The translations under genes were made by a program, and so were the position numbers. Under the pieces are notes generated by a model, which was not told where the DNA came from, made no database searches, and saw nothing but the letters and a program-made list of their open reading frames with translations. DNA of 33,177 bases from an uncultured bacterium (lineage in GTDB: Bacteria > Fidelibacterota > Marinisomatia > Marinisomatales > UBA1611), in assembly GCA_964586565.1 (NCBI GenBank), contig CAZPIF010000001.1, positions 1-33,177 of the forward strand. Reading direction: 5' to 3'. Every line of letters begins with the position of its first letter. Positions within the stretch are counted from its first letter, which is position 1. This document shows, piece after piece, positions 17,361 through 19,216 of the stretch.

Positions 17361-17821
17361 TGTCTCAAATTATTTCTAGAGTAATAGATGCTTACGTATT
17401 TAGAAAAACGAATGATGGTATCAATTTTCTACTATTAAAACGCGCAGAGACTAAAATCTATGAACACCTCTGGCAAGGAGTTGCGGGTAAGATAGAACCA
17501 GGTGAAACTGCTACAGAGGCCGCGGTTCGTGAATTAAAAGAAGAGACAGGCTTAGAACCTTTTAGAATGTTTGTAGCAGATCATGTTAGTAGGTTTTACG
17601 AGACTCATGGAGATAGAATTAATCTAGTTCCTGTTTTTGGGATTGAGGTTCGCGAGGAAAAAGTTATACTTTCAAAAGAGCATTGTGATTTTAAGTGGGT
17701 TGAATATGATAAAGCATTTAAAACTCTTGTTTGGAATGGCCAAAAAGAAGGAATTTCAGCAGTCTACAGTATGCTATTTTCAAAAGATGACCGTATAAAA
17801 TGGTCAAAGGTTTTATTATAA
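17360..17821 (+). CDS. NUDIX hydrolase
   Basis: Nudix box GKIEPGETATEAAVRELKEETGL. TAATG stop/start overlap with tgt. Confidence 0.85.
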   Translation: MSQIISRVIDAYVFRKTNDGINFLLLKRAETKIYEHLWQGVAGKIEPGETATEAAVRELKEETGLEPFRMFVADHVSRFYETHGDRINLVPVFGIEVREEKVILSKEHCDFKWVEYDKAFKTLVWNGQKEGISAVYSMLFSKDDRIKWSKVLL

Positions 17822-17840
17822 TATTGAATTGGAGATATTA

Positions 17841-18296
17841 ATGTTATCAGAAGGCAATAAAGCACCAGATTTTCAGTTGTATGACCAAAATGGTAATCCA
17901 GTAACCTTAGGCGATTTTAAAGGAAAAAAAGTACTAGTTTGGTTTTTTCCTAAAGCTAGTACTCCAGGTTGAACAATTGAAGGTCAAGTACTCCGGGATG
18001 AGTACAAAAATTTTCAAGAGAAAAATACAGAAATAATTGGAATAAGTGGAGACTCAAGCAAAGCTCAAAAAAACTTTTGTGATAAACAGAATTTCCCCTT
18101 TTTATTGCTCTCCGATCCAGAAAAAATAACTATAAAAGCTTACGGCGCATTTGGTCCAAAAAAATTCATGGGTAAAGAGTACGAGGGTATCTATCGTGTC
18201 TCTTATTTGATTGATGAAGATGGCGTAATTGAGAAGGTTTATAAGAAGGTTAAACCAAAAGAACATGCTGCACAAGTTCTATCAAACATAGTTTAA
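17841..18296 (+). CDS. bcp: BCP/PrxQ-type peroxiredoxin with in-frame TGA (17970-17972) at the peroxidatic-Cys position: candidate selenocysteine-containing peroxiredoxin (151 aa)
   Basis: Manual translation from ATG 17841 (GGAG at 17831-17834) gives MLSEGNKAPDFQLYDQNGNPVTLGDFKGKKVLVWFFPKASTPG[TGA]TIEGQVLRDEY...LLLSDPEKITIKAYGAF.... It continues in frame into the track ORF 18105..18296. The stretch is collinear with E. coli Bcp ...[23 protein letters not shown]..., so the TGA replaces exactly the catalytic Cys codon. Confidence 0.8.
17977..18017 (+). promoter_or_regulatory. Candidate bacterial SECIS-like stem-loop downstream of the in-frame UGA
   Basis: Upper stem GUACUC (17988-17993) pairs with GAGUAC (18000-18005), enclosing the 6-nt loop CGGGAU. 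Lower stem UUGAA (17977-17981) pairs with UUCAA (18013-18017) across an internal loop. The apical loop begins 21 nt after the UGA and has G at its second position. All of this was read by hand. Confidence 0.55.
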
Positions 18297-19216
18297 AAAG
18301 ATATATTCAAGCTATTACCGATAAAAGATTTCTCATTAATTGAAGCATCCAGATATCCTAACATTACAGAATGTCCTTTGATTTTTATAGAGTCAGAACC
18401 AAGGCTATATTCCGTTAAGTGTATAGGTTTTTTACCGATTGATAGTGCGGCAGAGTTTTCTATACATATAGCAATATCATTTTCATTGAACATATCTATC
18501 TTTTTTAAATCTAATCTAATGTTATAGTCATTCCCTGATAATCCAATAGTTAAATCTGGTTCTATACTATCATAGACGCATCCGCAGTATATTGGAAGTA
18601 TGGCTTTAAACACCACCCAGTATGTTGTACCGTATAAAACATCACAGTGAATGTGAGTTCGGCTTTTTATTCCAATCGCTTTTTGTATTCCACTAGCATT
18701 TATTAATAGATTGTAGTGAGACAACCTGATACCATGGCTCTTCTCAAAAGACAGTACTGCTTCATCATAAAGTAAAGGTTTGTATTTTGGCTCAAAACTT
18801 TTTGAATATTTTTTTATTTTATTAAATAGATTTGTGGTAGAAGTGATTAGGTCTTTGGCATCAGATTTTTTCTTAATTTCGTCAAAATTTATTTTTGCAG
18901 GTAAAACTACAGAGGCACCTATATTCCATATCCCATATAACAGAATCTCTGATTGAGGATATTTAAGATTTGGCATAATTATTCTATCTTTTGGTTTTAA
19001 ACCTAAGCTTTCTAACCAATTACTTGTTTGTTGGACATAGCAAAAAAATCTTCGATTGGTAATATTTTTTTCCTGTATAATAAGCTGATCGGAAAATTTA
19101 ATAGTTTGTCCTTCAACAAGGGATCTCATTGAAGGATATGGTGTCATATATTCGATAGGTTCAACATTTCCTATACACTGCGCATTATATATCTTTTTTT
19201 CTAGCTTTGTATTCAC
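18293..19216 (-). CDS. Truncated/degenerate adenylate-forming (AMP-binding, acyl-CoA-synthetase-like) family protein
   Basis: GLKPKDRIIMPNLKYPQSEILLYGIWNIGASVVLP resembles the N-terminal ANL-family block. DEAVLSFEKSHGIRLSHYNL sits where D.A.I.YTSGTTG.PKGV.LSH.NL is expected, so the P-loop is lost. IKIKGHSVMLGYLD resembles GE..v.G..vM.GY. At 307 aa it lacks the C-terminal subdomain. The GTG start is uncertain (in-frame ATGs at codons 24 and 30). Confidence 0.55.
   Translation of the reverse strand: MNTKLEKKIYNAQCIGNVEPIEYMTPYPSMRSLVEGQTIKFSDQLIIQEKNITNRRFFCYVQQTSNWLESLGLKPKDRIIMPNLKYPQSEILLYGIWNIGASVVLPAKINFDEIKKKSDAKDLITSTTNLFNKIKKYSKSFEPKYKPLLYDEAVLSFEKSHGIRLSHYNLLINASGIQKAIGIKSRTHIHCDVLYGTTYWVVFKAILPIYCGCVYDSIEPDLTIGLSGNDYNIRLDLKKIDMFNENDIAICIENSAALSIGKKPIHLTEYSLGSDSIKIKGHSVMLGYLDASINEKSFIGNSLNISF

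Follow-up and report, generated by a model that had tools for sequence, protein, structure and literature searches.

A covarying stem-loop past an in-frame UGA is very probably the SECIS element of a selenocysteine-containing BCP/PrxQ peroxiredoxin in an uncultured marine bacterium

The SECIS elements of Escherichia coli fdhF and fdnG are 40-nt hairpins located directly past the UGA codon. Their minimal upper stem-loop lies 11 nt from the UGA, and the G-U of the loop together with a bulged U binds SelB. For bacterial SECIS (bSECIS) elements in general, the consensus of bSECISearch by Zhang and Gladyshev (PMC13188914 Fig. 2) comprises an apical loop of 3–9 nt, an upper stem of 4–16 bp, a G in loop positions 1–2 that is mostly followed by G or U, a spacing of 16–37 nt from the UGA, and a minimum free energy (MFE) of −7.5 kcal/mol or lower. 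Ocean metagenomes have yielded peroxiredoxins (Prx) carrying selenocysteine (Sec) in a TxxU motif (COG1225/PF00578) since 2005; the GOS set held 253 Sec-Prx genes, and a Prx/SelW gene neighbourhood was reported from GOS reads (PMC2398784). These proteins and PrxU of Eubacterium acidaminophilum have the AhpC-TSA fold, and their Sec is the peroxidatic residue of a PxxxTxxU motif. We found no paper treating the selenoproteins of Marinimicrobia in any detail.

The window analyzed here is a stretch of 33,177 nt from an uncultured bacterium of the order Marinisomatales (contig CAZPIF010000001.1 of assembly GCA_964586565.1), whose metagenome-assembled genome (MAG) has a size of 1.69 Mb, a GC content of 33.6%, and a completeness of 69%. 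On its forward strand, a complete bcp/PrxQ-type peroxiredoxin gene occupies 17841–18296 and consists of 151 codons and a stop, read through one UGA: translation with TGA as U yielded a single open frame from the ATG at 17841 to the TAA at 18294–18296. A Shine-Dalgarno-like GGAG was read from the sequence at 17831–17834 on the same strand, 6 nt ahead of the ATG. The UGA at 17970–17972 (forward strand) is codon 44, stands at the peroxidatic position in PKASTPGU, and would be the Sec codon. The product matched AhpC-TSA of Pfam (PF00578, 2e-35, residues 5–132) and the NCBIfam equivalog of thioredoxin-dependent thiol peroxidase (BCP; 177 bits, cut-off 140), and both models span the UGA. Codon 44 was aligned with TGT or TGC in 88 Cys homologues, namely nine orthologues of the same order and 79 BCPs of Flavobacteriia, and PKASTPGU was aligned with YPKDSTPGC, which holds the peroxidatic Cys, of the solved BCPs 5enu, 5iox, and 3gkk. 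The fold and the motif are thus shared with the marine Sec-Prx and PrxU. In contrast, the product scored only 46.8 bits against the PrxU model, the cut-off of which is 270, and matched the BCP equivalog instead. It also differs from them in that it lacks the classical +5 resolving Cys, as do the Sec forms, and has Cys80 (codon 18078–18080). This residue lies in an NFC motif, is present in 35 of 48 orthologues, and was aligned with the NFC Cys of 5iox and 3gkk; Cys80 is therefore a candidate for the resolving residue, and would likely form the selenenylsulfide.

The preliminary description had placed a two-tier stem-loop at SECIS distance from this UGA. Its upper tier proved exact base for base: the strands GUACUC (17988–17993) and GAGUAC (18000–18005) form a 6-bp stem around the 6-nt apical loop CGGGAU (17994–17999), which begins 21 nt past the UGA and has its G at position 2. 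This core (17988–18005, forward strand) starts 15 nt past the UGA and spans 15–35 nt downstream. The bases described as a lower stem, UUGAA (17977–17981) and UUCAA (18013–18017), were also present, but of the two tiers only the upper one stood up to the analyses below. In folds of 51–61 nt, RNAfold returned the two-tier structure with an MFE of −11.3 to −11.4 kcal/mol, in which the lower stem grew to 8 bp (17977–17984 with 18010–18017, forward strand). Dinucleotide shuffles gave z-scores of −2.0 (61 nt) and −2.4 (51 nt), with 5–6 of 200 shuffles as stable as the natural sequence. In a codon-resampled control, in which the peptide was unchanged and the codons were drawn from the genome's own usage (5000 draws; mean −4.0, sd 2.0), the z-score was −3.6 and a fraction of 0.003 was equally stable. 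Within 201 nt of sequence, the pair probability was 0.98–1.0 for the upper stem and 0.7–0.8 for the lower stem. When the whole CDS was folded, the upper stem stayed at 0.98–1.0 and the lower stem fell to 0. The pair probabilities and the two controls together indicated that the upper hairpin is real and beats chance, while the lower tier is confined to short local folds.

Compared with the bSECIS model (PMC13188914), the element is likewise an intra-coding stem-loop directly past the Sec-UGA. The 6-nt loop, the 6-bp stem, and the 21-nt spacing lie inside the respective ranges, and the G at loop position 2 is followed by G, or by U in some orthologues. On the other hand, the base pair between N1 and N2 of the loop that is usual in the model is not formed in the bcp hairpin (C and A). 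The MFE of −11.3 kcal/mol (51 nt) lies below −7.5 kcal/mol only with the non-conserved lower stem; the 18-nt hairpin alone gave −5.6 kcal/mol, and several UGA orthologues folded at −4.8 to −6.5 kcal/mol over 57 nt, above that threshold. With the fdhF and fdnG elements of E. coli, the hairpin shares its location class, the apical-loop G, and a SelB with C-terminal winged helices, whereas it has neither sequence similarity to them nor a bulged U, its stem starts 15 nt past the UGA, and its loop differs. A search of Rfam over 17800–18300 gave no relevant match at the gathering score or at E ≤ 10, a result that we did not count against a SECIS, given how widely bacterial SECIS elements vary in sequence.

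The conservation of the hairpin was investigated in orthologues, which were searched with the read-through protein in relatives ranging from congeners to other members of the class. Nearly every genome of the family and the order had an orthologue of bcp, mostly with one internal TGA, and the Sec form extended to other families of the class. TGA occupied the same codon in 45 orthologues, which had no other disruptions, and all 45 kept the stem: 42 had all six pairs and three had five. The aligned set of 39 accounted for 36 of the former and all three of the latter, and each of the six further UGA orthologues had all six pairs. Other families of the class supplied four of these six, another family of the same order supplied one, and the sixth belongs to the nearest named relative, an uncultured Candidatus Marinimicrobia single-cell genome. 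The region aligned without gaps, and the 21-nt spacing from UGA to loop was identical in 45 of 45, without indels. In the 39 aligned sequences the loop was CGGGAU in 31, CGUGAU in seven, and CGGGAC in one, and a seventh upper-stem pair was seen in 16. The only helix that RNAalifold predicted on this alignment (A1) was precisely the 6-bp upper stem.

The hairpin had a different fate in distant Cys-bearing BCPs, none of which exceeded four of the six pairs (n = 85). The five older Cys orthologues of the order had 2–4 pairs, the single Cys orthologue from another class had three, and the 79 BCPs of Flavobacteriia (52–62% identity) had 1–4. The last group made up almost the entire outcome of a related-locus search with the protein as query, and served as the negative control.

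Within the aligned 39, the stem varied in a compensatory manner. Pair 22-39 was GC in 23, AU in seven, and GU in six sequences; pair 23-38 was GU in 18, AU in 15, UA in five, and GC in one; pair 24-37 was AU in 24, GU in 13, and GC in two; and pair 25-36 was CG in 29 and UA in 10, never broken. Pairs 26-35 and 27-34 were invariant. Compensatory changes on both sides thus occurred at four of the six pairs. Overall, 98.7% of the cells were paired compared with 89.3 ± 1.0% in column shuffles, and 24 cells were changed on both sides compared with 6.8 ± 2.1; in neither case did any of 500 shuffles reach the observed value, a significance that these controls overstate because the orthologue sequences are related. 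When the partner was slid by 1–3 columns, pairing dropped to 8–50%. Even within the genus, the stem was rebuilt with Val, Met, or Leu at residue 50 and Tyr or His at residue 55, and pairing was kept. The lower stem showed no real covariation: 71.1% of its cells were paired compared with 70.9% after shuffling (248 of 500 shuffles as high), a level that can be ascribed to the conserved E-G and N-F codons and to AT richness. Pairing at shuffle level and the zero probability in the whole-CDS fold ruled out the lower stem as a conserved second tier; it is probably incidental.

The genome was then viewed for the Sec machinery. It encodes SelD (387 bits, TIGR00476), the gene of which has its own in-frame TGA at GSGUACK, with the model spanning U, and a full-length SelB of 623 aa (338 bits) with EF-Tu domains, the SelB beta-barrel, and a C-terminal SelB-wing_3 winged helix of the RNA-binding type. 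Next to selB, a fragment of selA runs into the contig end, and full-length selA was present in two members of the genus. TGA is an ordinary stop here, terminating 202 of 817 long open frames genome-wide and 5 of 25 in the window, which ruled out its genome-wide reassignment.

We consider the stem-loop at 17988–18005 to be very probably the bacterial SECIS of a Sec-containing BCP/PrxQ peroxiredoxin, judging from the sequence comparisons. This reading is based on a UGA at the catalytic Cys, the presence of selD, selB, and selA, a hairpin that was kept with compensatory changes, its absence from the distant Cys controls, and the fit to the model. A SECIS at the 16–37 nt spacing was also what the preliminary description had proposed, and the orthologues, the controls, the machinery, and the consensus (PMC13188914) all supported it. 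On the other side we counted the failure to find tRNA-Sec in the genus, the −5.6 kcal/mol of the bare hairpin, a loop unlike the GUU of three other candidates in the genome, four Cys orthologues with an intact hairpin, and the missing Rfam match, the last discounted as above. In the proposed mechanism, a ribosome at the UGA (17970–17972) would meet the hairpin 15 nt downstream, with the loop from 21 nt, and the SelB encoded in this genome would bind it through its C-terminal winged-helix domain. With SelB-GTP then delivering Sec-tRNA(Sec) to the A site, the peroxidatic position of PKASTPGU would receive Sec and the chain would not terminate. This scheme presupposes that the organism has tRNA-Sec, as we infer along with SelB binding and Sec insertion. 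Existing knowledge of Sec decoding would remain unchanged by the bcp SECIS.

Other selenoprotein genes were sought by a genome scan for read-through frames with bSECIS-like hairpins. The scan gave 47 candidates, and ten were tested against Pfam: five were confirmed, three had no Pfam match, one was L175 (see below), and one was rejected as a selenoprotein, its UGA being the normal stop of mutL. Pfam domains spanned U in four genes besides bcp, and selD adds a fifth. A secreted BCP paralogue, prx2 (L181, G000:C32:9168-9650), has the hairpin GCGG-GUU-CCGU with its loop 17 nt from the UGA. A SelW-like/Rdx gene directly behind it (L174, G000:C32:9671-9895) has GCCUCCA-GUU-UGGAGGC at 22 nt. In an ArsC-like gene (L173, G000:C31:8439-8795; UxxS, PRUGKS), AGAGGC-CGUGUU-GCUUCU was found at 17 nt, and in the gene of a Prx-like thiol:disulfide oxidoreductase (L179, G000:C252:1618-2220; UxxC, WUPFC), AGGC-AGUUG-GCCU at 16 nt. 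The hairpin of selD (L172, G000:C12:4262-5296) is GCCCAG-GUU-CUGGGU at 33 nt. All five loops, 16–33 nt past the UGA, have a G at position 1–2 that is followed by U or G, an agreement with the model that is not independent evidence, as these hairpins were chosen by the bSECIS criteria. The bcp loop CGGGAU is unlike the GUU triloops of three other candidate SECIS in the genome and is nearest in form to the loop of the ArsC-like gene. Including bcp, at least six selenoprotein genes were thus present in the 69%-complete MAG.

The product of prx2 has a signal peptide and the motif TPGU...C, and the SelW-like/Rdx gene (CAVU) lies about 20 nt behind it, each gene with its own GUU-triloop hairpin; the Prx/SelW neighbourhood reported from GOS reads (PMC2398784) is the same as that on contig C32. 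In relatives, the prx2 orthologues (L141-L160) had one of two overlapping, mutually exclusive hairpins. The first type is GYGG-GUU-CCRY with its loop 17 nt past the UGA. The second is of the bcp type, GGAUUC-CG[G/U]GAU-GAAUYY, at exactly the bcp offsets, and where its stem was perfect, the other loop was often without its G. A further scan candidate, L175 (G000:C53:7379-8527), is a read-through frame of 383 codons with UPYC at residue 52, an Omp28 domain at 102–268, and the hairpin AGCGA-GUU-UCGCU 19 nt past the UGA. As its Pfam domain does not lie across U, we regard it as a candidate selenoprotein.

Four Cys orthologues differed from the distant ones described above. L019, L021, L022, and L023 carry TGC or TGT at codon 44, are nested among Sec forms, and have a perfect hairpin of six pairs with the same loop. 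At least one of their genomes, G008, still has selA and tRNA-Sec. They look like recent Sec-to-Cys replacements that left a fossil SECIS behind. Nevertheless, the hairpin is not strictly tied to the UGA, and its intactness in these Cys-converted orthologues, together with the same offsets in part of the secreted paralogue family, points to a possible role beyond that of the bcp SECIS. The element could be an ancient Prx SECIS, present before the paralogues diverged, for which one of two overlapping structures can be converted into the other. Alternatively, it could have a Sec-independent role in the translation of these mRNAs. We regard such an extended role as unlikely. The more specific proposal that the hairpin acts independently of Sec in ribosome pausing, mRNA stability, or regulation, besides or instead of serving as a SECIS, would draw on the same two observations, the four Cys orthologues and the subset of paralogues. 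However, these Cys forms sit on short branches inside Sec clades, so that a recent change from Sec to Cys explains the retention. The stem was lost in all older Cys lineages, and the paralogues with the same hairpin carry a UGA of their own. This proposal therefore seems highly improbable, and a SECIS remains the preferred reading.

It might also be argued that constraint on the protein and on codon choice in G-x-L/F-R-D-E-F/Y yields the hairpin as a by-product, with no selected RNA structure. The preliminary description held that the codons for QVLRDEY are not especially conserved in BCPs and that the constraint lies in the RNA. The first half did not hold for L-R-D: nearly all BCPs examined, Cys forms included, conserve this motif at the protein level, and it was kept even in the 79 BCPs of Flavobacteriia. 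The second half was borne out by the synonymous sites and the covariation. In this genome, CUC makes up 5.0% of Leu codons, CGG 3.4% of Arg codons, and GAG 28% of Glu codons. Leu51 was nevertheless encoded by CUC in 29 of 29 UGA orthologues, whereas five different codons were used for Leu66. Arg52 was encoded by CGG in 32 and CGU in seven of the 39, and never by AGA, CGA, or CGC; loop position 3, a fourfold-degenerate site, is accordingly only G or U, in agreement with the published consensus G[G|U]. The switch between CG and UA at pair 25-36, which required at least three changes on a tree built without the hairpin columns, links codon 51, whose first base makes it Leu CUC or Phe UUC, to the Glu 54 codon, which changes synonymously at its third base (GAG or GAA). 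The Glu third base thus covaries perfectly with a codon first base 11 nt upstream, over at least three independent switches. By contrast, Cys-BCPs with L-R-D use codons of the UUA and AGA type and form one to four of the six pairs. Against these observations, 3.2% of the synonymous resamples still made all six pairs, and the relatedness of the sequences inflates the shuffle significance. The by-product explanation appears strongly disfavoured by the comparative data, and we give it hardly any credence.

The 45 orthologues provide unusually clean comparative support for one bacterial SECIS, with amino-acid-altering compensatory changes and a loop position at which only G or U occurs. The set could be used to benchmark SECIS predictors and to study how SelB recognizes RNA.

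tRNA-Sec was searched for in the genus using the Rfam model, Aragorn, and BLAST with the tRNA-Sec of a relative. It was not found in this 69%-complete MAG, for which the Aragorn total was just 12 tRNAs, and the search of five further genus MAGs was equally negative. Among relatives it was present in 15 of 21, and Aragorn called tRNA-SeC (tca) in three. In two relatives of the family, tRNA-Sec sits in a syntenic block with a flanking gene for 260 aa. Of the five genus MAGs in which this flanking gene was sought (G000–G003 and G005), four were without it, and in G005 it is cut by the contig end after 66 residues (L184, end of C108). With the flanking gene absent or cut by a contig end, a systematic assembly or binning gap is most likely the source of the missing tRNA-Sec. 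The idea that a near-cognate Trp or Cys tRNA reads the UGA without Sec, the hairpin being a generic stimulator, or that the gene is in two pieces or a pseudogene, would accommodate the lack of tRNA-Sec in six genus MAGs and the splitting of bcp by gene callers, but is barely tenable. The genus has intact selA, selB, and selD, which would serve no purpose if tRNA-Sec were lacking, and the region that adjoins tRNA-Sec in relatives is itself unassembled in these MAGs. The UGA falls exactly on the redox-active Cys in 45 orthologues free of other disruptions, Trp at the peroxidatic site would destroy catalysis, and TGA otherwise acts as a normal stop in this genome.

At the sequence level, these results confirm bcp, which is split in public annotation, as one intact selenoprotein gene, and the marine lineage as rich in selenoproteins. 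Public gene calls divide bcp at the UGA into pieces of 43 aa and 63 aa, a typical mis-annotation of a selenoprotein gene. DNA identical to 17841–18296 was also present in marine metagenome assemblies (L168-L171), one of them a Tara Oceans run, in which bcp was called as a 43-aa Redoxin fragment, at times accompanied by a separate 63-aa ORF.
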